Shown piece by piece: positions 2,894 through 57,087 of a stretch of DNA of 64,000 bases. Under the pieces are notes generated by a model that saw only the letters and a list, made by a program, of their open reading frames with translations, searched no databases and was not told the origin of the DNA. A program made the translations under genes and the position numbers. This DNA comes from Candidatus Omnitrophota bacterium (lineage in GTDB: Bacteria > Omnitrophota > Gorgyraeia > Ghiorseimicrobiales > Ghiorseimicrobiaceae): assembly GCA_030681595.1 (NCBI GenBank), contig JAUXSB010000003.1, positions 223,207 through 287,206 on the forward strand, read 5' to 3'. Each line of letters begins with the position of its first letter. The stretch's first letter is position 1.

Positions 2894-3014
2894 AAGAGAC
2901 GTAACTTGTATGTCGGAATTTAACCCAGCACTTATTTTTACTAAAAATAAGTGCTGAATAAGTTCGGGCAGATAACTTATGTCGCCTTACAAGTTCCATA
3001 AGTTAAACCCTCCC
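2894..3014 (-). promoter_or_regulatory. L1 leader-family element upstream of prfA (box, hairpin 1, GGTTAAATTCC, hairpin 2).
   Basis: Perfect hairpin CAGCACTTATTTTTA/CTAAAAATAAGTGCTG at ~2926-2956. The box CTTATGTCGCCTTACAAGTTCCATAAGTT at ~2975-3005 is homologous to 51447-51482. Confidence 0.5.
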
Positions 3015-3212
3015 TTATTTCTTATATTTCTTCATAAATTTATCGACTCTTCCTGCCGAATCCACAAACTTCTGCTTGCCCGTAAAAAACGGATGGCATT
3101 TAGAGCAAATTTCTACACGGACATTCTGTTTAGTTGAACGAGTATGGATTATCTCCCCGCAAGCACAAATAATCGAAGCCTCCTGATAATTTGGATGAAT
3201 TTTATCTTTCAT
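3015..3212 (-). CDS. rpmE: 50S ribosomal protein L31.
   Basis: Translates as [26 protein letters not shown]...CHPFFTG. The AAGGAGAG RBS sits upstream of the internal ATG. The ORF-track start at 3239 is a GTG extension reaching into the leader. Confidence 0.9.
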
Positions 3213-3407
3213 TTTATTTTCTCTCCTTAATGACGACACGATTTACGGAATGTTAATGAGATAAATCGTATGCCGGAATTAATCCCGCTGAGTGTGCCAA
3301 AATTGTAGACCCTCTGGAATTTCTTTGAAATTCCGAGGACTTAGTCCCGGAAATTCTTCGAATTTCTCGGGGATAGAATTTTGGCACACTCAGCGGAATA
3401 TCCTCAC
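3213..3407 (-). promoter_or_regulatory. L1 leader-family element upstream of rpmE, expanded by nested hairpins.
   Basis: A 20-bp inverted repeat CCGCTGAGTGTGCCAAAATT ... AATTTTGGCACACTCAGCGG (~3286-3400) encloses three internal hairpins. GGGATTAATTCC, a second hairpin and TCATTAAGGAGAG are shared with the rho leader. Confidence 0.5.
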
Positions 3408-4655
3408 TTATTGGTTCATGCTCGCCAAGAACTCTTTATTGTTTTTAGTTTTAGACATCCTGTCAATAAGAAGCTCCATTGCTTCCGCCGAATTCAAATC
3501 ATTCAGCACCTTCCTTAATATCCATATTTTCTGCAAATCATCTCCTTTTATCAACAGCTCCTCTCTTCTTGTATTTGAACGCTTAATATCAATAGCGGGA
3601 TAAATCCTGCGCTGGAATAAATTCCTGTCTAACTGCAGTTCCATGTTGCCGGTCCCTTTAAATTCTTCAAAAATAACTTCATCCATGCGGCTGCCAGTAT
3701 CAACCAAAGCGGTCGCGATAATAGTAAGGCTGCCTCCTTCCTCAACAGCCCGGGCGGCGCCAAAGAAACGCTTAGGTTTATGTAAAGCATTAGAATCTAC
3801 CCCGCCGGATAAAATTTTCCCCGAATGCGGCACTACTGTATTATATGCCCGGGCAAGGCGGGTAATACTGTCCAGTAAAATCACCACATCTTTACCATGT
3901 TCAACAAGCCTCTTTGATTTTTCAAGGACAATCTCGGCAACTTGAACATGGCGCTCTGCCGGCTCATCAAATGTAGAAGAGATAACTTCCCCTTTAACAC
4001 TCCTCTGCATATCGGTAACCTCTTCCGGCCTTTCATCAATAAGCAAAACTATCAAAACTACATCCTGATGATTTTGGGTAATGGAATTGGCAATTTTTTG
4101 TAAAAGCACGGTTTTACCGCTATAGGGTTGTGCCACAATTAAAGCACGCTGCCCCTTGCCTAAGGGAGTAAGCAAATCCATTATACGGGTAGATATCTCT
4201 TCGGGATTAGCCTCAAGAAGAAAACGCTCATGCGGATAAATAGGCGTTAAGTTGTCAAACAATATTTTATCTTTTGTGCTCTCCGGGTTTTCAAAATCAA
4301 CCGCTTCAACTTTTAAAAGCGCGAAATATTTTTCCCCCTCTTTGGGCGGGCGGATCTGCCCGCTTACGGTATCGCCGGTCTTTAAGTCAAATTTTCTTAT
4401 CTGGGATGGCGAAATATAAATATCATCCGGGCAAGGCAGGTAATTATAATTCGGGCTCCTTAAGAATCCAAAACCATCTGGAAGGATTTCCAAAACCCCC
4501 TCCCCGAACATCAGCCCTTCTTTTTCTGCCTGCGCCTGTAAAATTTTGAAAATCAAATCCTGTTTTTTTAAGCCGCTGACGCCGTTAACATTTAAATCCT
4601 TTGCTATTTTGCTCAATTCGGTAATCTTTTTTTCTTTTAAGTTTATGATATCCAT
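3408..4655 (-). CDS. rho: Transcription termination factor Rho.
   Basis: 415-aa protein with an N-terminal RNA-binding domain, a Walker A motif (QPYSGKT) and a RecA-like ATPase core. Confidence 0.95.
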
Positions 4656-4767
4656 CTTTTACCCTCTCCTTAATGAACACATAAGTTACAGAATGAAATG
4701 ATGTAACTTATAAGTGTGAATTAATCCCGCCGAGTGTGTCAAAATTGTAGAATAGAATTTTGACACA
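4656..4767 (-). promoter_or_regulatory. L1 leader-family element upstream of rho, with a candidate -10 TATAAT.
   Basis: In sense orientation: cgTATAATgtgtcaaaattctattctacaattttgacacactcggcGGGATTAATTCac-[hairpin acttataagttaca...tgtaacttatgtgt]-TCATTAAGGAGAGggtaaaagATG. Confidence 0.5.
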
Positions 4768-12811: not shown

Positions 12812-12944
12812 TAATTAAATACCCAATCACCAATTACCAATTACCAAATCCCAATTAATTCCCACATTGTTCAATTTCCAATTTTTTTATATTGGTCATT
12901 GGTAATTTATTTAACATTGGCAATTGGGCATTGATCATTTTTAG
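12812..12944 (-). promoter_or_regulatory. L4 CCAAT/ATTGG-array leader upstream of the metV-like ferredoxin gene.
   Basis: Sense: CCCAATTGCCAATGTTAAATAAATTACCAATGACCAAT...AATTGGAAATTGAACAATGTGGGAATTAATTGGGATTTGGTAATTGGTAATTGGTGATTGGGTATTTAATTA-ATG. Confidence 0.45.
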
Positions 12945-13814: not shown

Positions 13815-13853
13815 CTTATCCTCTGTTTAATTTTATCTTTTTTAATACATGCT

Positions 13854-14120
13854 AAATGAATCCGGTGAATTTTGGAGCGCCCGCCACACTAATTGTCGGG
13901 CAGGAATTGACGATTTTACCTAGCCTCCCCGGAATACTTTATGGTTTTGATTGAAAGCGCATTAGAAAACTTTTGGCAAATGCCAGCCCGACTTAAGTCT
14001 GGCGGGTCTGCAAAGTGTTACGACGAGTGAATGACGAAACTGACCGAAGGGAATTTCGTCAAATGAACGAATCGTAAACTGTAACAAACGGCAAAAGATT
14101 TCAGCGCCGAAAGCGAAACC
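13854..14120. ncRNA. R1 copy A: structured multicopy intergenic element (5' box, variable region and a core of ~130 nt), upstream of metF.
   Basis: The 5' box AAATGAATCCGGTGAATTTTGGAGC is followed by the core GCATTAGAAA...GATTTCAGCGCC. The core is homologous to copies B and C, with compensatory changes in stems. It also carries an inserted 28-nt palindrome (GCCAGCCCGACTTAAGTCTGGCGGG). Confidence 0.5.
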
Positions 14121-14139
14121 ATAAAGTATTATACCTGCC

Positions 14140-14469
14140 TCACCATTTTCTAAATATAACAAACACTGCCGCAATAATCAATAAAAAACCAACTAAATAA
14201 TTCCATTTAAACCCTTCTTTAAGATAAAAAATTGAGAAAATAGTAAAAATAACTAAAGTTATAACTTCCTGTATGGTTTTAAGCTGTGCGGTAGTAAATT
14301 GATATGAACCGATTCTGTTAGCCGGGACCTGAAAGCAATATTCCATACTGGCAATCAGCCAACTGACTAAAACCGCAATCCAAAGCGGTGAATTTCTATA
14401 TTTTAAATGCCCGTACCAAGCAAAGGTCATAAAGATATTAGATATTGTCAAAAGAATAATGGCCTTCAT
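14140..14469 (-). CDS. Small integral membrane protein (DMT-like / DUF486-like).
   Basis: 109-aa protein with four predicted hydrophobic helices. It overlaps the upstream gene by 4 nt. Confidence 0.4.
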   Translation of the reverse strand: MKAIILLTISNIFMTFAWYGHLKYRNSPLWIAVLVSWLIASMEYCFQVPANRIGSYQFTTAQLKTIQEVITLVIFTIFSIFYLKEGFKWNYLVGFLLIIAAVFVIFRKW

Positions 14470-14995: not shown

Positions 14996-15841
14996 TTATC
15001 GTTGTATTTTCGCCGCTTCAACTAAGTTACGCATTAAAAGTGTTACAGTAAGGGGACCGACGCCGCCGGGGACAGGGGTTATATACGAAGCACGCGCTGA
15101 AGCGCCTTCAAACTCCACATCACCGACAATTTTATCATTGACGCGGTTTATACCCACATCTATAACTATCGCACCTTCTTTTACCCATTCGCCTTTAATG
15201 AGGCCTACGCGTCCAACTGCCACGATTAAAATTTCTGCCTTTCTAACGTGTTCTTCTAATTTTCCGGCCTTGGAAGTTCCGATATGACATACTGTTACGG
15301 TAGCAAATTGCTCAAGTAATAAAAGCGCAAGCGGCTTGCCTACAATTTCGCTGTGCCCTACAACAACTACTTCTTTTCCGTATAAATCTACCCCGCTTGC
15401 CTTAATTAACTCCATACAAGATGCCGCGGTACAGGGCGCTATTTTGGCTTTACCGAATAAAATTTTTCCGATATTTTGCGGATGCATCCCCTCTATATCT
15501 TTTTCGGGTGCGATAAACTGGCTAATTTTCTTATAATCTATCTGTGCCGGAAGCGGCATCTGGATAATTATCCCGTTTACATTTTTATCTGCGTTTAATT
15601 TCTGGATAAATTCGATTAGGCCGCTTTCTGAAATATTTGATTCCAGTTTATGAAACTGGTAATCAATACCTAACGCCTCAGCAGTTTTTTTCTGGGATTT
15701 AACATAGGCCTCGGCTCCGGCATTATCCCCAGCAAGGATACTGGCTAAAACCAGTTTTCTACCCAAGGCTTCGATTTCTTTTTTTATTTCTTCTTTAATT
15801 TTCTCGGCTATCGGTTTTCCTTCTAATAATTTTGCAGGCAT
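14996..15841 (-). CDS. folD: Bifunctional methylene-THF dehydrogenase / methenyl-THF cyclohydrolase.
   Basis: 281-aa protein with FolD family motifs (GKxVVVVGxSxIVGKP, VPGGVGPxT). Confidence 0.95.
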   Translation of the reverse strand: MPAKLLEGKPIAEKIKEEIKKEIEALGRKLVLASILAGDNAGAEAYVKSQKKTAEALGIDYQFHKLESNISESGLIEFIQKLNADKNVNGIIIQMPLPAQIDYKKISQFIAPEKDIEGMHPQNIGKILFGKAKIAPCTAASCMELIKASGVDLYGKEVVVVGHSEIVGKPLALLLLEQFATVTVCHIGTSKAGKLEEHVRKAEILIVAVGRVGLIKGEWVKEGAIVIDVGINRVNDKIVGDVEFEGASARASYITPVPGGVGPLTVTLLMRNLVEAAKIQR

Positions 15842-15898
15842 GCTTACTCCTTGTCAGCAAGACAACACTCGCGCAATTCCGCTTAGCGCGGGGTGTCG
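15842..15898 (-). promoter_or_regulatory. L2 leader repeat immediately upstream of the folD start.
   Basis: Sense: GACACCCCGCGCTAAGCGGAATTGCGCGAGTGTTGTCTTGCTGACAAGGAGTAAGC-ATG. It overlaps the last 6 codons of fchA. Confidence 0.55.
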
Positions 15899-16422
15899 AT
15901 ATTAACCAGCGCCGAATTAAACCCCGCGCTCAAAAGTTCCGCCCCGGCTAAAACATCATTTATCAAATACGTATTGCCCTTCTCTGCCAAAGCCGGACAA
16001 AACTGCAGGGCTTTATAGCAAAGAATAGAAATTTCCTTAACTATCTTTTGGGATTCTTTTTTGGCGGCTGCCTTTATTCTTTTATCACTTGTCCCGGCAT
16101 ATTTAGAATAGACGATAACATCCAAATCCACTAACTCTAAAAATCTCGCTCGAAAACTCTCCGTCTTAGAAAGTATCCGCTTAATTTCTTTTTCGTATTT
16201 TTTATATTTTTCTTTGCCTAATGTGAAATTGGCCACCATCGACAAAAGCGCGCATCCCAAAGCGCCGGAAAGTGCCGCGACACTACCTCCACCGGGAGCA
16301 GGTTTTTTGGCGGCTAAATCATCAAGATATTTTTTAATAGATTGATTTTTATATAACATTTTGTTAGATATATGCTGTGTCATTTGAGCGAATTGCAATT
16401 TTAGCCAAGCACGCACAGGCAT
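15883..16422 (-). CDS. fchA: Methenyl-THF cyclohydrolase / formiminotransferase-cyclodeaminase-type protein (FchA-like).
   Basis: Cyclodeaminase/cyclohydrolase family sequence (KKPAPGGGSVAALSGALG). The true start may be the internal Met (MLYKNQ...) at ~16359. The 3' end overlaps a copy of the L2 leader repeat. Confidence 0.7.
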   Translation of the reverse strand: MPVRAWLKLQFAQMTQHISNKMLYKNQSIKKYLDDLAAKKPAPGGGSVAALSGALGCALLSMVANFTLGKEKYKKYEKEIKRILSKTESFRARFLELVDLDVIVYSKYAGTSDKRIKAAAKKESQKIVKEISILCYKALQFCPALAEKGNTYLINDVLAGAELLSAGFNSALVNIDTPR

Positions 16423-16466
16423 TTTAAGGTATCCCGCTCAAAGAGCGGGACGCCGAGTATGTTTGA

Positions 16467-16494
16467 CCCCACACCCAGTGTACTGGGTGTGGGG
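16467..16494 (-). terminator. Hairpin in the fhs-fchA spacer.
   Basis: CCCCACACCCAGT-GTA-CTGGGTGTGGGG forms a perfect 12-bp stem. A second hairpin, CCCGCTCAAAGAGCGGG, lies at ~16433-16449. Confidence 0.4.
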
Positions 16495-16572
16495 GAATTA
16501 CGCAGGCGCTTAAAATGCCGAGAACTTGGCGTATAAAAATTGCACCTGAACGAAAAGGATACAGCATATATC

Positions 16573-18267
16573 TTACGATAACCCCACTATCTTGCCGTCT
16601 CCATCAATATCTATCTTTGTGCCTGCCGGAATAGAGGGTAACCCCGGCATGGTACGCATATCGCCTAATAAGGCGTATAAAAATCCGGCACCCGCGGATA
16701 CTTTTATTTCGCGGATTGGCACGATGAAATCTTTAGGCCTGCCCTTTAATTCCGGGTCATGCGAAAGCGATAAATGCGTCTTAGCCATACATAAAGGAAG
16801 CTCGTTAAAACCTAATTTATTAAACTCTTCTATCTGCTCTTTAGCAAGCGGCGAAATATTAATATCCTTTGCCCCGTAAATCTTTGTGGCAATCGCATAC
16901 ATCTTCTCTTCAATCGCACTATCTAATTCATAGAGGAACTTAAAATTAGATTTCTTCTTTGAAACCTCAACCACTTTTTCGGCCAATGCCTCGCCGCCTT
17001 TTGAACCCTTAGCGAATAAATCGCTGACAATCGCATCTTCGGCTCCGGCATTTTTGGCAATCTCTTTAATTAAGACGATTTCTTTATCCGTGTCAGAAGA
17101 AAATCTGTTAATCGCCACCACCACCGGGATACCAAAAATCTTAATATTCTCAATCTGTTTTTCTAAGTTTGCGGCACCCTCTCTAATCGCGGGCAAATTC
17201 TCGCGCAATAATCCCTCATCAAGCGGTTTTCCCGGTTTAACCGTAAATTTGCCTGAATGCATTTTTAAAGCGCGTACGGTACAGACTAAAACTGCCGCAT
17301 CAGGCGCCAGGCCGCTTACCCGGCATTTAATATCAAAAAATTTCTCTGCCCCGCAGTCCGCGCCAAAGCCTGCTTCGGTAACCACGAAATCAGAAAGCCT
17401 TACCGCAATTTTATCGGCAATGATTGAGCTATTTCCATGGGCGATATTGGCAAAAGGCCCGGCATGCACAAAACACGGCGTGTTGTCCAATGTCTGCATT
17501 AAAGTCGGATGTATAGCGTCTTTTAGAAGCGCTGCCATTGAACCGGCAACCTTTAAATCTTCGGTTGTAATATATTTCCCGTCAAAAGTCTTGGCTAACA
17601 CAATTTTTCCGAGGCGGTTGCGTAAGTCCTGTAAATCGCTAGACAGCGCTAAAATTGCCATTATTTCGCTGGCAACAGTAATATCAAAGCCAGTCTCTCT
17701 GGGATAAACCCCGTCTACCTTATCGTCTAAACCAACACTAATCTTGCGTAATGAGCGGTCACTTACATCTAAAACCCTGCGCCAAAAAATGGCTTTAGGA
17801 TCAATATTTAGTTTTTTCCTGAATAAAGCGTTTTCTAAAAAAGCGGCGCATAAATTATGCGCCAATCCCACAGCATGCACATCACCGGTTAAATGCAGGT
17901 TAAAATCTTCCATCGGCACTACCTGCGAATATCCGCCGCCGGCAGCCCCGCCTTTTATACCAAAGACAGGGCCAAGAGACGGCTGCCTAATGCAAGTAAT
18001 AGTTTTTTTACCGATTCTATTTAACGCCATTGACAGGCCAATAGTAGTTACGGTTTTACCCTCACCCAAAGGCGTAGGCGTCATTGCCGTAACTAAAATA
18101 TACTTTGCCTGCTTTTTTGACTTTAACTTTTTTAACACAGACGGCAAAACTTTTGCTTTGTGCTTACCGTATAGCTCTAAATCAGCCTCTTTAATCCCGA
18201 TAGAGGCGGCTATTTTTTGTATAGGTTTTAATTTTGCGGCTTGAGCTATTTCGATATCTGAAAGCAT
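16573..18267 (-). CDS. fhs: Formate--tetrahydrofolate ligase.
   Basis: 564-aa protein that matches the Fhs family over its full length (TPTPLGEGKTTTTIGL P-loop). Confidence 0.95.
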   Translation of the reverse strand: MLSDIEIAQAAKLKPIQKIAASIGIKEADLELYGKHKAKVLPSVLKKLKSKKQAKYILVTAMTPTPLGEGKTVTTIGLSMALNRIGKKTITCIRQPSLGPVFGIKGGAAGGGYSQVVPMEDFNLHLTGDVHAVGLAHNLCAAFLENALFRKKLNIDPKAIFWRRVLDVSDRSLRKISVGLDDKVDGVYPRETGFDITVASEIMAILALSSDLQDLRNRLGKIVLAKTFDGKYITTEDLKVAGSMAALLKDAIHPTLMQTLDNTPCFVHAGPFANIAHGNSSIIADKIAVRLSDFVVTEAGFGADCGAEKFFDIKCRVSGLAPDAAVLVCTVRALKMHSGKFTVKPGKPLDEGLLRENLPAIREGAANLEKQIENIKIFGIPVVVAINRFSSDTDKEIVLIKEIAKNAGAEDAIVSDLFAKGSKGGEALAEKVVEVSKKKSNFKFLYELDSAIEEKMYAIATKIYGAKDINISPLAKEQIEEFNKLGFNELPLCMAKTHLSLSHDPELKGRPKDFIVPIREIKVSAGAGFLYALLGDMRTMPGLPSIPAGTKIDIDGDGKIVGLS

Positions 18268-18324
18268 GTTTCTCCTTGTCAGTTAGACAACACCCGCGCG
18301 CTTCCGTTTAACGCGGGGTGCCCG
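18268..18324 (-). promoter_or_regulatory. L2 leader repeat immediately upstream of the fhs start.
   Basis: Sense: GGGCACCCCGCGTTAAACGGAAGCGCGCGGGTGTTGTCTAACTGACAAGGAGAAAC-ATG. Confidence 0.55.
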
Positions 18325-18690
18325 TTAATAACTAAACCTTTCGCTTAAAGGGAAGGCGTCAGTAAATAGGTTGATTTTCTTCCCGGAAATAGATACAATA
18401 TCGAATCTCGCGGCTGAATCCATTAAATTTTTAGATTTTAGGTATGAAATGGCGAGGACTGATAGTTTAAATTGTTTATTTTTATCTACTGCCTCGTAAG
18501 GCTGGCCGAAAAAACTAGTCACCCGTGTTTTTACCTCAATGAAGCAGAATACGTTTCTATCTTTTGCTATGATATCTATCTCGCCGAATCTCTTAAGGCG
18601 CCAATTGCGCTCTAAAATTTTATACCCTTTTTTCTTTAAAAAATTAACTGCTTCGTCTTCGCCGGCTTTGCCTAAAGCAATATTATGCAT
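18325..18690 (-). CDS. yraN: YraN family (UPF0102) endonuclease.
   Basis: 121-aa protein with the GExDIIAxD...FxEVKxR motif. Confidence 0.8.
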   Translation of the reverse strand: MHNIALGKAGEDEAVNFLKKKGYKILERNWRLKRFGEIDIIAKDRNVFCFIEVKTRVTSFFGQPYEAVDKNKQFKLSVLAISYLKSKNLMDSAARFDIVSISGKKINLFTDAFPLSERFSY

Positions 18691-21075: not shown

Positions 21076-22234
21076 CCTTCGTTTTGGCTATGCTGTAAGC
21101 GGCAAAAAATTCTTTTTTAAAATCAGAAAACCTGTCTTCGCTGATTGCCGCCCTGGCTTTCTCCATAAGAGAAAGATAAAAATAAATATTATGATACGAA
21201 ACCAGTATCGCCCCTAAAATCTCGCTTGCGTTTAATAGATGCCTTATATACGAGCGCGAATAATCCCTGCAAACAAAACAGTTGCATTCCTCATCTAACG
21301 GCCTTAAATCATTAATGTAAGGGGAATTCCGCACCACAATTTTTCCGCGCCAAGTAAAAACCGTGCCGTTTCTGCCGTATCTTGTAGGCACAACGCAATC
21401 AAACATGTCTACGCCGCAATCTACCGCTGAGATCATATCTTCCGGAGTTCCTACGCCCATTAAATAACGAGGAAATTCTTTAGGTAGGTATTCGCAGGTC
21501 GTTTGTACGATATTATACAACAAATCCTGCGGCTCGCCAACTGAAATTCCGCCTAAAGAATATCCATCAAACCCTATTTTTGCCAATTCTTCCGCGCAAT
21601 ATTTCCTTAAATCCGGATAAGTCGCGCCTTGTACAATACCAAATAATAAATTTCGGGATGCGGGATACGCCAGCCCGACTTCATTCTGGCGGGGGATGCG
21701 GGATTGACTAAGCGCTTCTTTAGAACGCTTTGCCCATTGAATGGTCCGCCTCATCGCTACTTCTGCTTCATCTCTAACGCATGGATAATGCACGCATTCA
21801 TCCAAGGGCATTAAAATATCCGAACCCAGAGTAAGCTGTGTCTCAATTACGCTTTCCGGGGTAAGGGTATGTTTCGAGCCGTCGATATGCGACTGAAATT
21901 CCACTCCCCTATCGGCCACCTTTCTTAATTTTGCCAGGCTAAATACCTGATATCCGCCGGAGTCAGTTAAAATCGGCTTATCCCAGTGCATAAATTTATG
22001 TAAACCCCCGGCATTTTTAATTACCTCTAAGCCCGGGCGCAGGTACAAATGATAAGCGTTGGCAAGGATAATCTGCGCAGAGCACTCTTCCAAGTCGCGG
22101 ACAGTGAGCGCTTTGACTGTGCCCTGTGTGCCTACCGGCATAAAAATCGGCGTATCAATTACGCCATGCGCTGCCTTTAATTTCCCTAGGCGCGCATTTG
22201 AATTCTTATCCTGATGAATTAAGTTAAAAGACAT
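21062..22234 (-). CDS. tgt: Queuine tRNA-ribosyltransferase.
   Basis: 390-aa protein with the Tgt TIM-barrel sequence and zinc-site CxCxxC...H. It contains an in-frame palindromic insertion at ~21655-21705. Confidence 0.9.
   Translation of the reverse strand: MSFNLIHQDKNSNARLGKLKAAHGVIDTPIFMPVGTQGTVKALTVRDLEECSAQIILANAYHLYLRPGLEVIKNAGGLHKFMHWDKPILTDSGGYQVFSLAKLRKVADRGVEFQSHIDGSKHTLTPESVIETQLTLGSDILMPLDECVHYPCVRDEAEVAMRRTIQWAKRSKEALSQSRIPRQNEVGLAYPASRNLLFGIVQGATYPDLRKYCAEELAKIGFDGYSLGGISVGEPQDLLYNIVQTTCEYLPKEFPRYLMGVGTPEDMISAVDCGVDMFDCVVPTRYGRNGTVFTWRGKIVVRNSPYINDLRPLDEECNCFVCRDYSRSYIRHLLNASEILGAILVSYHNIYFYLSLMEKARAAISEDRFSDFKKEFFAAYSIAKTKVEDY
21655..21705 (-). repeat. In-frame mini-palindrome in tgt, flanked by 12-nt direct repeats.
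   Basis: GGGATGCGGGAT-acg-CCAGCCCGACTTCATTCTGGCG-gg-GGGATGCGGGAT. The palindrome is nearly identical to the 28-nt insertion in R1 copy A (~13982-14010). Confidence 0.85.
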
Positions 22235-26869: not shown

Positions 26870-26959
26870 GTGACCATTTCTTTAAAAATTTATATTTTAC
26901 ATTCCGCTCATCCCATACACGATAGACGAACTTCGCTTTTTTGTGTTAGATATATTTTA

Positions 26960-27240
26960 AAATGAATCCGGTGATTTTAGAGCTTTTTTTGACGATTTTA
27001 GTAAAACATGCTAATAATTTTTTAGCGGGTGGCGAGGTTTGTGCTTTAAGAAATCCTCCACCTCACAAACTATATATTTTGCTGCGGGATCTGGAAAAGT
27101 GCATTAGAAAGCTTTCGGCAAAAGTGCGCAAGGAATTACGGCGAGTGAATGACGGAACTGACCGAAGGGAATTCCGTCAAATGAACGAGTCGTAAACCGT
27201 AGCGCCCGGCGAAAGATTTCAGCACGTGGACAGTATCCCG
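26960..27240. ncRNA. R1 copy B, located between a hypothetical gene and ruvB.
   Basis: The 5' box AAATGAATCCGGTGATTTTAGAGC lies at ~26960. The core spans 27101-27228: GCATTAGAAAGCTTTCGGCAAAAGTGCGCAAGG...GACGGAACTGACCGAAGGGAATTCCGTC...GATTTCAGCAC. Confidence 0.5.
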
Positions 27241-27254
27241 CAGCAAAGTATATA

Positions 27255-28322
27255 CTAAAACAACTCTTCCTGTTTCTCGTGTTTTATACCGAAATGTTCA
27301 AAGGCTGTCTTTGTGGCGAGGCGGCCACGCGAGGTACGCTTTAAAAATCCAGCTTTTAATAGGTATGGCTCTATTGTATCCACTAAAGTATCTATTTCCT
27401 CGTTTAAACTTGCCGCGAGCGATTCAACCCCGACCGGCCCGCCATTATAAAGTTCAATAATTGTCCTGAGTACCTTACGGTCGTATTCGTCTAAGCCTTT
27501 TTTATCTATGCCTAAAGAGGTAAGCGATTTTTCGGCTATCTCTTTTGTAATAACCTTCGCCCTATCTTTTACCTGCGCGTAATCGCGCACGCGCCGTAAG
27601 AGCCGGTTTGCAATGCGCGGCGTGCCGCGGGAGCGACGGGCAATCTCTAAAGCCGCGTCTTCTTCTACTTTTACGCCTAATAAATCCGCCGAGCGCTTAA
27701 TAATCGTGGCTAAATCCTCGGGCGGATAAAAATCAAAATGATAAAATATGCCAAATCGGGAACGCAGCGCTGAACTTAAAAGCCCGCTTCTGGTGGTAGC
27801 GCCGATTAAGGTAAAACGTTTTAAATTAAATTTTATTGTACGAGCGTAAGGCCCTTTATCTACGATAAAATCAATCTGCGAATTTTCCATTGCCGGATAC
27901 AAAAACTCCTCCACTACTTTAGACATACGGTGTATCTCGTCAATAAAAAGCACATCCCCTGTGTCTAAATTGGTAAGGATGCCGATTAAATCGCCGGCCC
28001 GCTCAATGGCAGGGCCGCTTGTGGCGGTAATCTTTGTGCCCATTTCATGGGCAATAATGTAAGAAAGAGCGGTTTTTCCTAATCCGGGAGGGCCGGATAA
28101 AAATACATGCTCCAGTGGTTCTTTACGTTCTTTAGCGGCAGTGATAGCAATTTTTAAACTTTCAACTATCTCGGCCTGCCCGACAAACTCGCTAAGTCTT
28201 CCCGGCCTAAGCGAAAGGTTTAAAACTATATCTTCCTCAGTCTCCTGCTTTAAAAGCAGTTCCGAAGGAAAAGAGCTATTTTCGGATGTACCTGTAAGTA
28301 TTTTTTTTCTTCCTGTGGGCAT
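27255..28322 (-). CDS. ruvB: Holliday junction branch-migration helicase RuvB.
   Basis: 355-aa AAA+ protein with the [10 protein letters not shown] Walker A motif and RuvB family sequence. Confidence 0.95.
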
Positions 28323-30097: not shown

Positions 30098-30275
30098 AAT
30101 AATGAAAATCTTTTAAAGCCGCACATTAGAAATTTTTCGGTAAAAGTGCGCAAGGAATTACGGCAACGACCCATCCTTCTCGGATGGGTACCCCGACGGA
30201 ACTGACCGAAGGGAATTCCGTCAAATGAATGAGCCGTAAACCGTAGCGCACGGCGAAAGATTTCAGTGCGGCGGA
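30098..30275. ncRNA. R1 copy C, located between infB and trpS.
   Basis: The 5' box is shortened to AATGAAAATCTTTTAAAGCC. The core spans 30121-30273 and contains an extra 35-nt hairpin insertion (CAACGACCCATCCTTCTCGGATGGGTACCCCGACG). Confidence 0.5.
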
Positions 30276-30291
30276 TAAAGATTTCCATTAT

Positions 30292-36786: not shown

Positions 36787-37860
36787 TCACTTTATAAATA
36801 TCTCTTTTAACAACACTTCCACGCATTTATTGGCAGACACCTTTTTTATCGGCTTTCCGTGCTTAAACAATAACCCGTCTTTTTTACCAAAGGCAATACC
36901 TATATCTGCTTCTCTTGCCTCTCCCGGTCCGTTGACGACACAGCCCATAACGGCCACCTTCATTGAGTTAGCGTTTAGCGGATAGCGTTTAGCGGATAGC
37001 CTCTTTTCTAAATTATTAACGATATTTACCAAATTTACTTCGCATCTGCCGCAGGTAGGGCAACTGATAATCTCAGGGCCAAAATTGCGTAAACCTAACG
37101 AGCCCAAAATAACCTTTGCCGCGCTTACTTCGTCTTGGGGCTTTTCCGTAAGCGATACCCTGATAGTATCTCCAATCCCTTCCAATAAAAGCGCCCCCAA
37201 GGCAATGCTTGATTTTATTGCGCCTGCATACGGGCTTCCTGTAGCGGTAAGGCCTAAATGCAAAGGATAATTGGTAAGTTTGGCCATTTTACGATAAGCT
37301 TCTATGGTGTCAAGGATGTTTGAGGCTTTCAATGAAACCACGATATTATAAAAACCAAAACCCTCTAACATCTTTATGTAATCTTGCGCGCTTTTCACCA
37401 TTCTTTCTACACTTGACCCCTGACCCCTGACCCCTGACACTTCTTTTTTTACCGAGCCGGAATTAACTCCGACCCTAATCGGAATTCCGGCTTTTTTTGC
37501 CGCTTCTGCTACAGTTTTAATCTGGCGAGCTTTAAAAATATTTCCCGGGTTTAGTCTTATCTTATCCGCACCGTTTTTTATCGCTAAAAGCGCTAATTTA
37601 TAATCAAAATGAATATCCGCAACTAAAGGAATATTTATTTTACGTTTAATCTTGCTTATCGCCGCGGCCGATTCTTTATCCTTAACGGTAACTCTTATTA
37701 TTTCGCAGCCGGATTTTTCTAGCGACTTTATTTGCCTAACAACCGCGTCAACATCCTTAGTATCGACCTTTACCATTGACTGAATGATGATAGGATTACT
37801 GCCGCCTATCTTCACTCTACCTATTTTTATTTCTCTGGTTTTATGCCTGTCTATCTGCAT
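36787..37860 (-). CDS. ispG: 4-hydroxy-3-methylbut-2-enyl diphosphate synthase.
   Basis: 357-aa GcpE family protein. It carries two in-frame repeat insertions at ~36969-37000 and ~37417-37437. Confidence 0.9.
   Translation of the reverse strand: MQIDRHKTREIKIGRVKIGGSNPIIIQSMVKVDTKDVDAVVRQIKSLEKSGCEIIRVTVKDKESAAAISKIKRKINIPLVADIHFDYKLALLAIKNGADKIRLNPGNIFKARQIKTVAEAAKKAGIPIRVGVNSGSVKKEVSGVRGQGSSVERMVKSAQDYIKMLEGFGFYNIVVSLKASNILDTIEAYRKMAKLTNYPLHLGLTATGSPYAGAIKSSIALGALLLEGIGDTIRVSLTEKPQDEVSAAKVILGSLGLRNFGPEIISCPTCGRCEVNLVNIVNNLEKRLSAKRYPLNANSMKVAVMGCVVNGPGEAREADIGIAFGKKDGLLFKHGKPIKKVSANKCVEVLLKEIFIK
36969..37000 (-). repeat. 14-bp tandem repeat (GCGTTTAGCGGATA)x2 inside ispG, identical to the L5 leader 3'-arm units.
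   Basis: It encodes ...RLSAKRYPLNAN... The same 14-mer pair occurs in the purA leader at 44283-44330. Confidence 0.85.
37417..37437 (-). repeat. (CCCCTGA)x3 heptamer array inside ispG.
   Basis: 21 nt, in frame, encoding a GQGSSV-type low-complexity stretch. Confidence 0.85.
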
Positions 37861-43013: not shown

Positions 43014-44282
43014 TTAACGAAAGATTGTCTCTGACCGCGCCGACCCCACAGAAACTATCCTTATTTTTGCCAAAATCAGATCCTCTAGCGCGCATAGGTA
43101 ATTTAAAGCATTTCTGGGAAGCCGGTTAAATTTATGTATCTTGCTTAAATCACTGCACCATCCTTTAAACGTCTTATAAACCGGCTGCGCCCCCGTTAAC
43201 ACTTCAAAATCGTACGGGAAATTACGGAATATTTTACCTTTATATTTATAAGAAACGCAAACCGAGATTTCCTTTAAATTATCCAAAACATCCAGCTTCA
43301 TCATTGCTACCTCGCGCACACCACTTAAACTGGTGGCATATTTTACTAAAACAGCATCAAACCATCCGCACCTTCTGGGCCGGCCGGTTGTCGCGCCGAA
43401 TTCCCTGCCTTTTTCTCTGATAATATCGGATAACTCATCCTTAAATTCGGTAGGGAAAGGGCCCTCTCCTACGCGCGTTGTATAAGCCTTTACCACACCA
43501 ACAACTTTATTTATTGTTTCCGGGGGCATCCCCGATCCGTTGCATATCCCCCCGGCAGTCGTATTAGACGACGTCACAAAAGGGTATGTCCCGAAATCAA
43601 TATCTAAAAATGTTCCTTGTGCGCCCTCGAAAAGAATAGATTTATTTTTTTTGACTACTTCCTGCAATAAAATGGTGGTATTGCAAATATATTTTGAAAT
43701 CCTCTTGCCGTAATCAAAGTATTGATTATAAAGCTGGTCTAAATCAAAACCGGGGTGCTTATATACTTTTTTAAAAATTTCGTTCTTTTCTTTAAGGTTA
43801 TCTTCTAATTTTTCTTTAAATACATTCGGATTGAGCAAATCAACCGCCCTGATCCCGCAACGGGAGATTTTATCGGCGTAACATGGCCCTATCCCGCGGC
43901 CGGTAGTGCCTATACGCTGAGTTCTTTTTGATTCACGCAGCTTGTCTAAAATACGATGATAGGGCATAATAATATGGCAAAGCTCGGATATCTTAAGATT
44001 AGATTTAAGTTTTATTCCGTTTTTATCAAGATATTCCATCTCCGAAAGTAAAGACTCGGGGTCAATCACTACCCCATTTGCAATAACGCAGGTTTTGGCC
44101 TTATGCAGAATTCCCGAAGGAATAAGATGAAAGACAAACTCCCTGTCGCCAACCACAACGGTATGTCCGGCGTTATTGCCGCCCTGAAAACGGACAATAT
44201 AATCTGCTTTTTCGGCCAAGATATCAATAATCTTGCCTTTGCCTTCATCGCCCCATTGTAAACCAACTATGGCTGTATTCAT
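43014..44282 (-). CDS. purA: Adenylosuccinate synthetase.
   Basis: 422-aa protein with QWGDEGKGK and GGNNAGHT motifs. Confidence 0.95.
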   Translation of the reverse strand: MNTAIVGLQWGDEGKGKIIDILAEKADYIVRFQGGNNAGHTVVVGDREFVFHLIPSGILHKAKTCVIANGVVIDPESLLSEMEYLDKNGIKLKSNLKISELCHIIMPYHRILDKLRESKRTQRIGTTGRGIGPCYADKISRCGIRAVDLLNPNVFKEKLEDNLKEKNEIFKKVYKHPGFDLDQLYNQYFDYGKRISKYICNTTILLQEVVKKNKSILFEGAQGTFLDIDFGTYPFVTSSNTTAGGICNGSGMPPETINKVVGVVKAYTTRVGEGPFPTEFKDELSDIIREKGREFGATTGRPRRCGWFDAVLVKYATSLSGVREVAMMKLDVLDNLKEISVCVSYKYKGKIFRNFPYDFEVLTGAQPVYKTFKGWCSDLSKIHKFNRLPRNALNYLCALEDLILAKIRIVSVGSARSETIFR

Positions 44283-44363
44283 ATTTTTATGGTTTAGCGG
44301 ATAGCGTTTAGCGGATAGAAAAATAAATTCGCTATACGCTATACCCTATACGCTCTACGCTAA
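44283..44363 (-). promoter_or_regulatory. L5 inverted 9/14-bp repeat leader upstream of purA.
   Basis: Sense: AATTAGCGTAGAGCGTATAGGGTATAGCGTATAGCG-AATTTATTTTT-CTATCCGCTAAACGCTATCCGCTAAACC...ATG. The 5' arm holds (TAGCG)n and the 3' arm (CGCTA)n. Confidence 0.45.
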
Positions 44364-45605
44364 TTATGGTATCATCGTAAATATCTTACGGGCAGACGCC
44401 GGATATTTAGCGATAAACATAAGTTCAGCTTCAGTCAGCGGTTTCTGGTTATGTACATTGGCATACCTAACCAATTCCAAAACCTCTGTTGCCTCCCGGT
44501 CATCCTTGAATTCTATTTCTAATTTCTCATAGACGTTTCTAAAACCTTTAATGCCGCTGTATTCCCCGGCAGTAATCTTACGCCCCGTTTCAATAATTTC
44601 AGGCTCGCCGCGGCCGAGCTCCTCAAAGTCGTAAAGTTCGTAGTTACGCCTGTCTTTCAGCGCCCCGTCGGCATGAATTCCCGATTCATGCGCAAAGGCA
44701 TTCGATCCTACTCCGGGTTGGTTTATGGGTATCGGTACGCCAAAGGCATAAGACGCATACTTACATATCCGCCAGGTAACTTTTAAATCTATTTTTTCAT
44801 CCAGAAAATATTTATCCTTAAAACCCGTGCCGTATTTTATAGCCAATATTACGCTGACTAAATCGGCATTACCCGCCCTCTCGCCCATACCGTTGACACA
44901 AGTATTAATATAGGCATCGAATCCCGCGTCTAGAACACCCCTCGCACCGCAGATGGAATTGGCTACTACCAACCCCAGGTCATTATGGCAATGTACTTCT
45001 AAGGGCAGCTTTACTTCTTCTGCTAAGGCGCGCATTCTTTCATAAATAGTATAGGGTGTATCGCATCCTAAAGTATCACAGTAACGGATACGGTCGGCAC
45101 CCGCCTTTTTGGCTGCCTTAGAAAACTCCATCAGGTACTCCATACGCGTACGCGAAGCATCTTCGGCATTTACCCCTATTGACTCTGCCCCCAAATCCCT
45201 GGCGCGCTTAACTGCTTCTTTCATCTCGCCGATTACGCTCTTATGATCTAATTTTCCCTTAAATTTATGCATAATCATCTGGTCGGATGTAGAGATGGAA
45301 AGATTAACATGTTTTAGCTTAGGCGTTGATTTAAAAGCGGCCTCCACATCACTAACTGTCGCGCGCAGCCATCCGCCTAAACGTATAGGCTTAAGCACGC
45401 CTATCTTTGCCAGATCCAGGTTAGCATTTAAATAATTCGTTTCGTGGCGGGTAACCGGAAAACCAAATTCTGTCTGAAATACGCCCATTTCATTTAAGTA
45501 CAGGTTTATCATTGTTTTCTGCAACTTAGACAGGCAAATCCTTGAAGTCTGCACTCCATCCCGGTTAGTTACATCAATTATGTGAATTCTGTTTTTTGGT
45601 TTCAT
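44364..45605 (-). CDS. HMGL-like synthase (homocitrate / citramalate / 2-isopropylmalate synthase family).
   Basis: 413-aa protein with a pyruvate carboxyltransferase TIM-barrel (VTNRDGVQ, HxHNDLG). It lacks the LeuA regulatory C-terminal domain. Confidence 0.7.
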   Translation of the reverse strand: MKPKNRIHIIDVTNRDGVQTSRICLSKLQKTMINLYLNEMGVFQTEFGFPVTRHETNYLNANLDLAKIGVLKPIRLGGWLRATVSDVEAAFKSTPKLKHVNLSISTSDQMIMHKFKGKLDHKSVIGEMKEAVKRARDLGAESIGVNAEDASRTRMEYLMEFSKAAKKAGADRIRYCDTLGCDTPYTIYERMRALAEEVKLPLEVHCHNDLGLVVANSICGARGVLDAGFDAYINTCVNGMGERAGNADLVSVILAIKYGTGFKDKYFLDEKIDLKVTWRICKYASYAFGVPIPINQPGVGSNAFAHESGIHADGALKDRRNYELYDFEELGRGEPEIIETGRKITAGEYSGIKGFRNVYEKLEIEFKDDREATEVLELVRYANVHNQKPLTEAELMFIAKYPASARKIFTMIP

Positions 45606-51281: not shown

Positions 51282-51489
51282 AGAGCCTCCTCAAATGAAC
51301 AGACAATTTATGGAACACGGAGTGCGAGATAAATTGTAGGACGAAGTCCGTCTGTGAATTTGGCCCAGCACTAATTTATTCAAATACCAACTAAAATTTC
51401 TCAATCCAGCCAGCTCGGAAAATTAGTGCTGGGTAAATTCGGCCATACAACTTATGTCGCTCTACAAGCTCCCTAAGTTGTGGCTTTAC
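51282..51489 (-). promoter_or_regulatory. L1 leader-family element upstream of the class V aminotransferase.
   Basis: The same box (ACTTATGTCGCTCTACAAGCTCCCTAAGTT), hairpin CCCAGCACTAATT...AATTAGTGCTGGG, GGCCAAATTCAC, a second hairpin (ACAGAC...GTCTGT) and the TCATTTGAGGAGG RBS. Confidence 0.5.
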
Positions 51490-52128
51490 TTATTTCGTTG
51501 TAACAATCACTTCATCAATTATGCCGTATTTTTTCGCCTCTTCAGACGACATAAAATAATCGCGGTCAGAGTCTTTTTTTACTTTCTCGACAGATTGTCC
51601 TGTATGTTTGGCTAAAACCTGCTCTATCTTTTCTCTTAGGCGCAATATTTCATTTGCCTGGATAGAAATATCTGCCGCCGCACCCTGCACGCCTCCCCAA
51701 GGCTGATGTATCATAATCCGCGAATTAGGAAGCGCAAAACGTTTACCCTTTGTGCCGGCAGATAACAAAACCGCGCCCATACTTGCGGCCTGCCCCACAC
51801 AATATGTGCATACAACAGGTTTTACAAACTGTATAGTATCATAAATTGCAAGCCCTGCGGTGACAGAACCGCCCGGAGAATTAATGTAAACATTAATTTC
51901 CTTGTTTACATCCTCCATTTGCAGAAAAAGCATCTGGGCGATAACCAAATTTGCTACATTGTCATCTATGGGAGTGCCGATAAAAATAATCCGGTCCTTA
52001 AGCAAGCGGGAGTAGATATCATATGCCCGCTCAAACCCCCTGCTTGTCTGCTCTATAACCATGGGAACCAAAACCTGGCCAACTTCTGGCTCGCGCCTTT
52101 GAGAACTTGTATACATACTTACCCCCAT
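51490..52128 (-). CDS. clpP: ATP-dependent Clp protease proteolytic subunit.
   Basis: 212-aa protein with the ClpP Ser-His-Asp catalytic triad context (GQAASMGA). Confidence 0.95.
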
Positions 52129-52201
52129 TCTAGCGTTTAGCGGTTAGCGTATAGGGTATAGGAAAAATATAAACTAAACGCTATTCGCTATACGCTCTAC
52201 G
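52129..52201 (-). promoter_or_regulatory. L5 leader upstream of clpP.
   Basis: Sense: AATTAGCGTAGAGCGTATAGCGAATAGCG...CTATACGCTAACCGCTAAACGCTAGAATGGGGGTAAGT-ATG. It shares the AATTAGCGTAGAGCGTATAGCG box with the purA leader. Confidence 0.45.
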
Positions 52202-53080
52202 CTAATTTTCTGTCCACTCCGCCTCCCTTAAAAGGAACTCCATTACTTTTGCGGTGTTGTGTTTTTCGTCTAATTTTATGTTTTCTAATTCAGAAACTTT
52301 GTCCAAAATAAAATAAATTTTTAGGTCCTTTATCGCTACTTCACGCAGGCTTCCTTCAACTTCTTTCTTTTTTTCTTCGATTTTTTCCTTAGGCATCCCC
52401 TGCTGCATCAGGCGGTATTCCAAAACATGCAGCCTCTCTTTAAGCTCGCGCTCAATAACAGATACCGGCAACTCGATTTCAGAATTGCCGATAAGAAAGT
52501 CAACTACCTGTACCTCGTGTTTGTTGCGCGCATTTTCCGAAACAGCAAGAAATAATTGGTTCCTGACAATCTCGTGCAGATTAGCTAGTGACGGATAACC
52601 CAAGCTTTTTGCGAGGTTATCATCAATTGCCTCAGCTTTTTTTTCTTTCTTTATGCTTTCCAAGGCTTCCTTAATTTTATCATCGGTTATTTCTACCGGT
52701 TCCCTTTTTATTTTTATGGCTTTATATTTTTTAATCTTTACCTCGGGTTTTACCTCCACTATCGCTTTAAAAGAAAAACTATCCGCTTTTAAATTGACTT
52801 CGCTTATCTGGGGATGGTCAATGACAAAGATGTTTTCCTGTTTGACAGCCTGTTCATATAAGCCTTCTACCAGATATTGGCTCACCAAAGACCTTGCGGT
52901 ATCATGAAATCTCTTTTCTAGTATATCGCGCGGTATTTTTCCCGGCCTAAATCCGGGAACCTTGGATTCCTCATTTATCTGTTTATAAACATCTTCGAAT
53001 TTACGGGCAACTTCGTCCTTGCCCACCCCAACGCTCAATTCCACTTTTGACTTAGCGATTTTTTTTACTGTAACATTCAC
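52202..53080 (-). CDS. tig: Trigger factor (short form, no recognisable FKBP PPIase domain).
   Basis: 292-aa protein with a GTG start. The N-terminal ribosome-binding domain (GFRPGK signature) and the C-terminal arm domain are present. A G9 tract lies immediately upstream of the start. Confidence 0.8.
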   Translation of the reverse strand: MNVTVKKIAKSKVELSVGVGKDEVARKFEDVYKQINEESKVPGFRPGKIPRDILEKRFHDTARSLVSQYLVEGLYEQAVKQENIFVIDHPQISEVNLKADSFSFKAIVEVKPEVKIKKYKAIKIKREPVEITDDKIKEALESIKKEKKAEAIDDNLAKSLGYPSLANLHEIVRNQLFLAVSENARNKHEVQVVDFLIGNSEIELPVSVIERELKERLHVLEYRLMQQGMPKEKIEEKKKEVEGSLREVAIKDLKIYFILDKVSELENIKLDEKHNTAKVMEFLLREAEWTEN

Positions 53081-55795: not shown

Positions 55796-55852
55796 ATTGT
55801 CAGTTAGACAACACTTGCGCAATACCGCTTAGCGCAAGGTGTCAGTACTAAA
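55796..55852 (-). promoter_or_regulatory. L2 leader repeat immediately upstream of the nadA start.
   Basis: Sense: GACACCTTGCGCTAAGCGGTATTGCGCAAGTGTTGTCTAACTGACAAT-ATG. This copy lacks the AGGAG. Confidence 0.5.
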
Positions 55853-55858
55853 CCGTTC

Positions 55859-56989
55859 CTAATTAATGCTTTCCCTAATGATTCCTCCGCCCAAGACGGT
55901 GTCCTTTTGATAAAAAACTACCGATTGTCCCGGAGTTACTGCCCTCTGAGGCAAACTAAACTCTATCCTTACACTATCCTTATTAATAGGAATAAGGCGG
56001 GATTTTACTTCCCGATGATTATACCTGATTTTAGCGCCAATGGCAATTATTTTTTTAAGTGGTAATCCCATGAGAAAATTAAGGTTATCGGCAATAAGCC
56101 CTTGCGCGCAAGTGTCTTTTTGCCCTCCTAAAACAATCACATTCTTCTTGGCATCTATTTTTACCACATACAAAGGCGCCGCATACCCCCCGCCTAAAGC
56201 CCGGCGTTGCCCGATAGTATAAAAAGGTATGCCCTGATGCTTCCCTATCACTCTGCCGTCTATATGGATAAGCGCACCCGGCACTATCTCTTTACCTATA
56301 CGCCCGGAGATAAAAGAACGATAATCATCATTAGGAATAAAACATATTTCCTGGCTGCCCGGTTTATCCGAAACCGGTAAGTTAAAATTACGGGCGAGCC
56401 GGCGCACCTCTTCTTTGGTATATTTACCGAGAGGGAAAATCAGATACGGCAATACTTCTTTTTTTATAGCATATAAAAAATAAGACTGGTCTTTTTGAGA
56501 ATCCTTGGCTTTCTTTAACAAATACTTATGTTTCAAGCGGTTATAGCAAAGCTTTACGTAATGGCCGGTCGCCAGATAATCACAAGACAACTCCCTTGCT
56601 TTCCTTAAAAGCAGATTAAATTTTAAAAACTGGTTACATTTTACGCACGGATTAGGAGTGCGCCCGGCAAGATATTCACTGCAGAAATTTTTTATTACTT
56701 TATCTTCTAAAACAGTTCCAAAACTAAAAACATAATGCTTAATCCCCAAAGTATTCGCGGTCTTACGCGCGTCTTCAATACCGCTAATCCCGCAACAAGA
56801 GGGCCGTTTTCTATTATCCGCGGCTTCTTCATCAAACAAAGATCCGCCGGAGGCGGATCCGCCTGCGGTGGAAAAACACATAGTCCCGCCGATAACCTCA
56901 TAGCCATCTTTCTGTAATAAAGCGGCGGCAACTGCCGAATCTACTCCGCCACTCATCGCAACCATTACCCGTTTCTTATTATTAGTCAT
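55859..56989 (-). CDS. mnmA: tRNA-specific 2-thiouridylase MnmA.
   Basis: 376-aa protein with a PP-loop (SGGVDS) and the MnmA family catalytic Cys residues. It contains an in-frame palindromic insertion at ~56841-56868. Confidence 0.9.
   Translation of the reverse strand: MTNNKKRVMVAMSGGVDSAVAAALLQKDGYEVIGGTMCFSTAGGSASGGSLFDEEAADNRKRPSCCGISGIEDARKTANTLGIKHYVFSFGTVLEDKVIKNFCSEYLAGRTPNPCVKCNQFLKFNLLLRKARELSCDYLATGHYVKLCYNRLKHKYLLKKAKDSQKDQSYFLYAIKKEVLPYLIFPLGKYTKEEVRRLARNFNLPVSDKPGSQEICFIPNDDYRSFISGRIGKEIVPGALIHIDGRVIGKHQGIPFYTIGQRRALGGGYAAPLYVVKIDAKKNVIVLGGQKDTCAQGLIADNLNFLMGLPLKKIIAIGAKIRYNHREVKSRLIPINKDSVRIEFSLPQRAVTPGQSVVFYQKDTVLGGGIIRESIN
56841..56868 (-). repeat. Perfect 19-nt palindrome GATCCGCCGGAGGCGGATC inside mnmA.
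   Basis: In frame, encoding part of TAGGSASGGSLFDEEAAD in a loop of the PP-loop domain. Confidence 0.8.
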
Positions 56990-57087
56990 TATTCAATGCC
57001 CAATTAACCAATTACCAATTTCCAATAAATGTCCAATTGTTCAATTACCAATTTTAATTTGACATTGGTTATTGGGATTTGTTAATT
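56990..57087 (-). promoter_or_regulatory. L4 CCAAT/ATTGG-array leader upstream of mnmA.
   Basis: Sense: CCCAATAACCAATGTCAAATTAAAATTGGTAATTGAACAATTGGACATTTATTGGAAATTGGTAATTGGTTAATTGGGCATTGAATA-ATG. It is homologous to 12812-12944. Confidence 0.45.

Follow-up and report, generated by a model that had tools for sequence, protein, structure and literature searches.

R1, a previously undescribed family of structured intergenic hairpins in Candidatus Omnitrophota and a possible mobile repeat

A stretch of 64,000 nucleotides from a Candidatus Omnitrophota bacterium (the window, meaning the whole stretch that was analysed) contains three copies of an intergenic element, R1, and the question that this locus raises is whether such an element is a non-coding RNA gene, a mobile repeat or the decaying remnant of one. 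Omnitrophota are a widespread, uncultivated phylum of ultra-small and probably host-dependent bacteria, and to our knowledge no specific non-coding elements of these bacteria have been described. The initial annotation of the window proposed a new ncRNA or MITE-like family with three same-strand copies that share an invariant block. The three copies are indeed present on one strand, and the 27-nt block TGACCGAAGGGAATTYCGTCAAATGAA common to them occurs exactly three times in the window against zero occurrences expected by chance, while an nhmmer profile search of the 64-kb window found no R1 beyond copies A, B, and C. As shown in Table 1, each core is enclosed by an outer stem, P0, whose sequence differs among the three copies with its complementarity kept. 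The copies fold at −65 to −82 kcal/mol, with z scores of −4.4 to −9.7 relative to shuffled sequence.

Table 1. Features of the window (coordinates are window positions) and successive parts of the R1 hairpin.
Feature	Position	Strand	Sequence or description
R1 copy A, whole hairpin	13933..14130	+	Core (P1 to P1) 13957-14107; P0 AATACTTTATGGTTT / AAACCATAAAGTATT
R1 copy B, whole hairpin	27071..27254	+	Core 27099-27225; P0 TATATATTTTGCTGCGGGAT / ATCCCGCAGCAAAGTATATA, also written TTTGCTGCGGGAT / ATCCCGCAGCAAA
R1 copy C, whole hairpin	30099..30291	+	Core 30119-30271; P0 ATAATGAAAATCTTTTAAAGCCGCAC / GTGCGGCGGATAAAGATTTCCATTAT; ATCTTT..CCGCAC / GTGCGG..AAAGAT including P1
U remnant at copy A	13852..13921		Box 13854-13877; TTGACGATTTTA 13907-13918
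U remnant at copy B	26955..27045		Box 26960-26983; TTGACGATTTTA 26989-27000
U, full copy	16368-16572		−90 kcal/mol, z −9.4
Motif of ~70 nt, three copies	15851-15920, 18276-18345, 55797-55866	minus	
Intergenic repeats	36959-36999, 44278-44365, 52121-52207		
Intergenic repeats	2944-3021 and 51419-51496		
Intergenic repeats	3210-3309 and 4653-4751		
Intergenic repeats	12824-12885 and 56994-57055		
R1 part P0	Outermost		AT-rich variable arms, often with GA/GA, GGA/GGA or GAA/UGAA loops
R1 part P1	Inside P0		4-6 bp
R1 part AUUA bulge	Between P1 and P2		
R1 part P2			12 pairs flanking a conserved G·G mismatch
R1 part J2/3			4 nt or an inserted hairpin
R1 part P3			6 bp, e.g. GUGCAC/GUGCAC, GUCUGC/GCAGAC, GUGUGC/GCACAC
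R1 part AA/GUA loop	Between P3 and P4a		
R1 part P4a			GG/CC
R1 part P4b			UUACGGY/RCCGUAA
R1 part large loop			GAGUGAAU / AAAUGAACGAG; Y-GA-R tandem G·A motif and 2-bp covarying mini-helix
R1 part P5			7 bp
R1 part tip			CUGAC-(variable hairpin, 4 to about 70 nt)-GGRAAUU

Copy B is the shortest of the three and the standard form, with the minimal apical loop CUGACC-GAAG-GGAAUU, a folding energy of −76.5 kcal/mol and a z score of −8.6, and it is directly adjoined by the stop codon of a RuvB-like gene at 27255. Copy A begins 9 nt past the stop codon (14140-14142) of a minus-strand gene of 109 aa and has an additional GC-rich hairpin within J2/3 (about 13984-14009). Copy C fills the spacer from the infB stop (30292) to the trpS start (30080) and is regarded as a degenerate copy because the 5' side of its large purine loop is swapped for the hairpin CCCATCC-TTCTC-GGATGGG. 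The extra hairpins of copies A and C, which had been assigned to a single internal site, thus occupy different places in the rod. The mutual identity of the window paralogs is only 84–85%, and copy A is 91% identical to the copy at L004, another locus in another species; old subfamilies therefore coexist.

The anatomy of R1 was read from two alignments, A2 and A3, and covariation was counted on 33 distinct copies, namely the 3 window copies and 30 further full copies; 7 more are cut by contig ends. On one strand R1 is a long rod in which P0, P1, P2, P3, P4, and P5 follow one another and end in a variable tip. Its 46 base pairs are 97.1% paired across the 33 copies compared with 85.9% in shuffles (a value of 97.1% was reached in none of 500), sliding the 3' partners lowers pairing to 29–48%, and 24 of the 46 pairs show compensatory changes on both sides; RNAalifold was also run on the alignment. 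The fold is therefore real, since pairing lies far above the shuffled and slid controls and so many pairs are double-changed, and the earlier claim of a conserved, covarying structure is borne out. The same applies to the central hairpin on which that claim was partly built (GACGAAA/UUUCGUC against GACGGAA/UUCCGUC), a true compensatory pair that corresponds to P5. The other two helices do not hold as proposed: GCAUU/AAUGC in copy A and GCAU/GUGC in copy B were mis-assigned as P1 (the P1 of the family reads GCGC/GCGC in copy A, GUGC/GCAC in copy B, and CCGCAC/GUGCGG in copy C), and the long-range helix GUGUUAC/GUAACA of copy A is a copy-specific alternative pairing that is not positionally homologous to P3 (GUGCGC/GCGCAC) of copy C.

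The distribution of conservation along the rod is uneven. The centre and the asymmetric A-rich loops are nearly invariant across the phylum and the ends (P0) are variable; alignment A3 has 47 invariant columns, 22 of them set by the search pattern, while the host flanks range from 34 to 59% G+C. Hairpins of varying length occupy fixed sites, J2/3 and the tip. The loops were also inspected by eye for hammerhead, hairpin-ribozyme, and k-turn readings, none of which fitted the consensus.

Which strand forms the structure had been decided in the initial annotation from one U-G pair in a helix that proved to be mis-assigned. G·U pairs are rare in R1 helices (1.5%), and the helix cells of all copies comprise 1441 Watson-Crick, 23 G·U, 17 A·C, and 26 other combinations, so that a strand call from wobble pairs carries no signal either way; a call from GC skew or replication direction was likewise rejected, as the skew just tracks the coding strand. 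The unpaired core positions of both arms are 80.5% purine (A 53%, G 27%, U 15%, C 4%) against 51% for paired core positions, and the + strand is favoured on this ground. It is also more stable than its complement in 32 of the 33 copies, by a mean of 8.7 kcal/mol. Folding stability and the purine-rich unpaired positions thus favour the + strand as the structured strand. Meanwhile, the scarcity of G·U pairs is unusual for an RNA gene and fits maintenance at the DNA level or on two strands better.

Family membership was established with sequence patterns and nhmmer profiles. The apical-loop pattern, run against 185,579 species genomes, gave 3 true matches, all in Candidatus Omnitrophota MAGs, and 2 chance matches, and an independent pattern for the 3' half matched 33 loci in metagenomes. 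The most divergent of the loci, L013, has flanks of 59% G+C, and the named relatives of its neighbour gene are all Omnitrophota. R1 is a previously undescribed family of ~150–270 nt that has been found so far only in Omnitrophota. R1 is present in few copies: per representative genome, 1–2 are found by the strict apical pattern, to which all three window copies conform; each fetched locus carries one copy, and relatives have one R1 copy in about 118 kb, so the dozens of copies per genome that had been expected are not supported. The three copies in 17 kb of the window are therefore a local cluster.

The Rfam 15 scan of the whole 64-kb window at gathering thresholds returned 0 matches, not even a tRNA, and the scan in E-value mode of copy B and nine other R1 loci returned nothing on the element, 6S models included, which places R1 outside the Rfam families. 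No R1 match was found in viral contigs, plasmids, or phages; none of 5,426 E. coli genomes matched copy B in blastn, hence there is no similarity to the ERIC consensus; and a literature search on Omnitrophota RNA motifs found no account of R1.

The initial annotation had placed a conserved 5' box before each core and accordingly described a modular element of box plus core. In fact the box is found only at copies A (13854) and B (26960) and is absent at copy C and at all other R1 loci. It was ruled out as a part of R1, being homologous to the terminal arm of another element, U, to which it belongs. U is a rod of 200–270 nt whose tip is three-way and whose terminal stem reads AAUGAAYCUGUYCG / CGRACAGAUUCAUU; the window contains one full copy of it and two remnants (Table 1). 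At the site of the remnant next to copy B, L040 has a full U-like element, and the remnant aligns on the gene strand with the 3' ~110 nt of that element; it is also homologous to the U terminal arm of L009. The remnant at copy A has a GC-rich mini-hairpin between the box and TTGACGATTTTA. U also occurs at L040 (12840-13110) and L042 (15352-15501), and it directly adjoins R1 in L009, L015, L018, L026, L029, and L037. Seven fetched loci from several metagenomes carry U at differing genomic sites, five of them from the sample Ga0209777. U has no match in Rfam and is a second structured intergenic family. Since R1 adjoins or lies inside U copies, R1 forms mosaics with another repeat.

Several other repeats were noticed in the window. 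A small GC-rich hairpin, GCCAGCCCGAC-UUAA-GUCUGGCGGG, recurs in J2/3 of R1 copy A (13984-14009), beside the U remnant at copy A (13880-13901), and inside R1 copies of other species (L001 and L034), and a similar 32-mer lies in a coding region (21662-21693); this hairpin may be a mini-insertion module. On the gene strand, the three-copy motif of ~70 nt directly precedes the start codon of three genes: a folD-like one, a formate-THF-ligase-like one (564 aa), and a nadA-like one. It contains the hairpin CACCCCGCGC-UAAGCGGAAUU-GCGCGAGUG, in which the third copy has a compensatory change from CC/GG to UU/AA, and a second hairpin, UUGUCUNNCUGACAA, which adjoins GGAG and ATG in the folD-like and fhs-like copies and lies directly at the ATG, without GGAG, in the nadA-like copy. 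This motif had no match in Rfam in gathering mode (3 copies) or E-value mode (two copies, 15800-18400), and it looks like a candidate cis-regulatory leader or riboswitch. The remaining intergenic repeats listed in Table 1 include GTTTAGCGGATAGCG-type tandem-like units, two two-copy repeats of 55–78 nt, and a CAATTACCAAT-rich repeat, and the genome seems to be rich in short dispersed repeats.

Among the loci examined, R1 is always intergenic. The gene downstream of it lies on the same strand at 14 loci, starting 20–140 nt away, and on the opposite strand, convergent, at 17 loci that include all three window copies; within co-directional gene arrays, R1 is antisense in 15 and sense in 6. The earlier statement that R1 is antisense to every flanking gene therefore describes this window but not the family, whose orientation is mixed. 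By eye, the hairpin starts 0–10 nt after a stop codon at all three window copies (wA, wB, wC) and at L004, L013, L017, L018, and L028. Its neighbours are functionally unrelated housekeeping genes, such as trpS, infB, ruvB, metF-like, folD, leuB, and asd, to which ribD, ribF, rfaF, queH, leuS, and uvrB are added. Sigma-70-like promoters and intrinsic terminators around R1 were not above chance, neither a transposase nor any other partner gene was seen near R1 copies, and Y1_Tnp was not present in the Pfam lists of L040-L048, a small sample. Small ORFs or a type I toxin were considered and rejected, as the ORFs lie in differing frames and strands across copies and the insert lengths vary. tRNA genes lie ~100–300 nt from R1 at L012 (1189-1462) and L024 (about 4100-4180).

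Comparison of orthologous sites revealed the presence or absence of R1 at the infB–trpS junction, in the spacer downstream of RuvB, and upstream of rfaF. At the first of these, R1 is found in the window and in L040 (TrpS 93% identical), whereas 5 nt lie between the stop and the start codon in L042 (TrpS 86%) and the two overlap in L044 (TrpS 76%), with no R1 at the junction in either and none in about 20 kb; a single gain explains this more parsimoniously than two exact losses would. The insert at this locus C is flanked by an imperfect 10-nt direct repeat, ATAATGRAAA, the sole candidate for a target-site duplication. A reading of copy C as a T-box or tRNA-synthetase leader was rejected, since R1 lies antisense at that site and relatives do not have it. 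Downstream of RuvB, L040, which is the closest relative, has no R1 and instead a full-length U-like element, whereas the window has copy B together with only the 3' ~110 nt of U. Similarly, R1 stands in front of rfaF in L013, whereas in three relatives of L013 rfaF overlaps the preceding gene or starts 12 nt after it, and no R1 or U was found there in 57 kb. R1 is missing at the same gene junctions in close relatives and has therefore been gained or lost.

The behaviour of R1 in place can be followed at a few sites. The spacer that carries R1 shares 90% identity between the window and L040, compared with 72–80% at the third codon positions of trpS and infB, and P0 shows a compensatory change from T:A to C:G, which together indicate that R1 is constrained or corrected where it sits. 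In the locus-C copies of both, the large loop is lost or degenerate and the stems are retained. In L028, L017, and L018, the arms TTTTAGGNNTTTTGCT / AGCAAAANNCCTAAAAT occupy one and the same place at the stop codon of leuB, and the R1 interior of L028 is inverted relative to that of L017 and L018; judging from these sequences, this flip is an inversion between R1's own inverted arms. Some R1 positions, namely the leuB 3' end and the folD–metF spacer, are apparently common to several lineages, and in the latter the placement and subtype of R1 differ between L026 and L029. As for the original proposal of a new ncRNA or MITE-like family, what stands is a real covarying family that has no Rfam match and undergoes gain and loss; the box, the common insertion site, the strand argument, and the copy number do not stand.

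The best explanation makes R1 a non-coding mobile hairpin repeat of Candidatus Omnitrophota that is present in few copies and behaves most like the REPIN/ERIC type, a reading whose chances of being right or wrong we consider evenly balanced. It is founded on gain and loss, insertion into junctions of 0–5 nt, mixed orientation, mosaics with U, few G·U pairs, and the lack of expression signals. In such a system, a folded single strand of the conserved centre would be recognised and then moved or copied by a putative enzyme encoded elsewhere, and the moving strand would most simply be single-stranded DNA, as in REPIN-RAYT elements or IS200/IS605 ends. The complementarity of the arms might then be kept by selection that preserves a 3'-terminal stem-loop on neighbouring messages or, alternatively, by templated correction from arm to arm. 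Several observations speak against the REPIN/ERIC-like reading: the layout of conservation is the reverse of that in REPINs and TIR-MITEs, in that the centre is invariant and the ends vary; the composition of unpaired positions (53% A, 4% C) is typical of functional RNAs; the + strand folds better in nearly every copy; neither a partner gene near any copy nor a clear target-site duplication was found; and the paralogs are old (84–85% identity), with some positions common to several lineages.

Part of the same evidence would suit a multi-copy small RNA gene, in which R1 would give a + strand RNA of 150–190 nt from its own promoter or cut from longer transcripts, a protein would bind its conserved purine-rich loops, which have tandem G·A, or the loops would fold into a tertiary structure, and the gene would have spread by duplication. 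The strong covariation, the purine bias of the unpaired positions, the greater stability of the + strand, and an in-place evolution slower than that of synonymous sites all agree with this, as do deeply conserved loops combined with peripheral hairpins that vary in length at fixed sites, an arrangement seen in many functional RNAs, and the mixed orientation to neighbours is what a stand-alone gene would be expected to show. However, promoter and terminator signals do not exceed chance, only 0–10 nt separate the hairpins from adjacent stop codons, there is no preference for G·U over A·C, close relatives differ by gains and losses of copies, junctions of 0–5 nt have received insertions, the interior is inverted in place at one locus, and the large loop is degenerate in both locus-C copies with the stems kept; on balance, an RNA gene of this kind is tentative and rather unlikely. 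The invariant-centre layout and the strand asymmetry nevertheless leave some probability to a functional RNA of the + strand whose gene is mobile and spreads as such. In its most specific form, R1 would be a new functional structured RNA spreading like a mobile element, a + strand RNA of 150–190 nt whose tandem G·A and A-rich loops would make it a ribonucleoprotein scaffold or a catalytic or processing RNA, and whose orientation and expression could be switched by arm-to-arm inversion, which we hold to be unlikely.

R1 might instead be a neutral or decaying quasi-palindrome, that is, an extinct MITE whose stems are kept only by hairpin-templated correction during replication and which benefits neither host nor element. 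G·U and A·C cells would then be expected as found, about equal and both rare, and the interior inverted between its arms at one locus, the degenerate copies at locus C (wC and that of L040), and the mini-hairpins inserted within some copies can be understood in the same way. Templated correction should, however, erase asymmetric loops, yet the loops are the best-conserved part of R1 in flanks of 34 to 59% G+C, which makes a neutral self-correcting palindrome less likely; an identity of 90% against 72–80% at synonymous sites and subfamilies common to several species, such as that of copy A and L004 (91% identical), also count against it, so that this explanation appears distinctly improbable.

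The two remaining readings are contradicted by orientation and context. A site of a single-strand recombinase (an integron attC or an IS200/IS605 end) marking gene cassettes would account for a hairpin directly after stop codons with a variable terminal structure and conserved unpaired bases, but by eye no conserved R''/R' ends (RYYYAAC/GTTRRRY) are seen in the aligned copies, the arms differ between copies, and there is neither an array nor an integrase nearby, the window copies being 3–13 kb apart among syntenic housekeeping genes; such a site is very improbable. Least credible of all is a cis-regulatory leader, with R1 acting as a riboswitch or attenuator within the downstream gene's 5' UTR, for although R1 is highly structured with conserved loops and has a same-strand gene close downstream at 14 loci, the downstream gene is convergent at 17 loci including all three in the window, R1 is absent from the same junctions in relatives, and the unrelated functions of the neighbours (trpS, ruvB, metF, leuB, ribD, rfaF, queH, and others) rule out a riboswitch-type leader.

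R1 is a well-supported structured family missing from Rfam, and it offers clean cases of insertion at an overlapping gene junction and of inversion in place. If R1 is a REPIN-like replicator, that biology would reach a new phylum, and the inverted layout of conservation would imply a different mode of recognition; if it is an RNA, it would represent a new class of motif, and the number of its conserved loops would point to a specific partner. On either reading, R1 gives annotators a model for masking or labelling and a marker of strain-level variation.

Known systems resemble R1 to different degrees. The 6S-type rod RNAs are similar in being rods of 150–200 nt that are closed by a stem and have conserved internal loops and a tip that varies; in contrast to them, R1 has several copies per genome, is gained and lost in close relatives, and has no large central bubble. 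Correia/NEMIS elements and TIR-MITEs are, like R1, small non-autonomous insertions at gene junctions with hairpins in transcripts and copies that vary between strains, and TIR-MITEs share with it presence or absence at orthologous sites, but R1 has no shared conserved terminal inverted repeats, its P0 arms differing between copies and lineages. ERICs are imperfect palindromes of a little over 100 bp that are intergenic, transcribed, and present in either orientation; they are conserved between species, and longer forms arise via insertions at fixed internal sites. R1 is alike in form to ERIC/IRU, as an intergenic imperfect palindrome in either orientation with internal insertion variants, and differs in lacking sequence similarity in E. 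coli genomes, in belonging to another phylum, and in having arms that are not conserved terminal repeats.

It has been reported that REPINs insert into or beside other REPINs, that compensatory changes in their hairpins are common, and that presence or absence of copies gives evidence of their movement (PMC3116915). The ends of a REPIN (the REP 16-mers) are invariant and its middle is free, whereas in R1 the middle and the asymmetric loops are invariant and the ends vary, and two conserved inverted end sequences are missing from alignments A2 and A3; R1 is also longer (175–270 nt) and low in copy number, and no RAYT occurs in the sequence examined (64 kb and short flanks). On the other hand, R1 is like the elements of the REPIN-RAYT system in being extragenic and non-coding, in its similar size range, and in forming one long hairpin that is kept by compensatory changes (24 of 46 pairs), with copies that cluster with other repeats.
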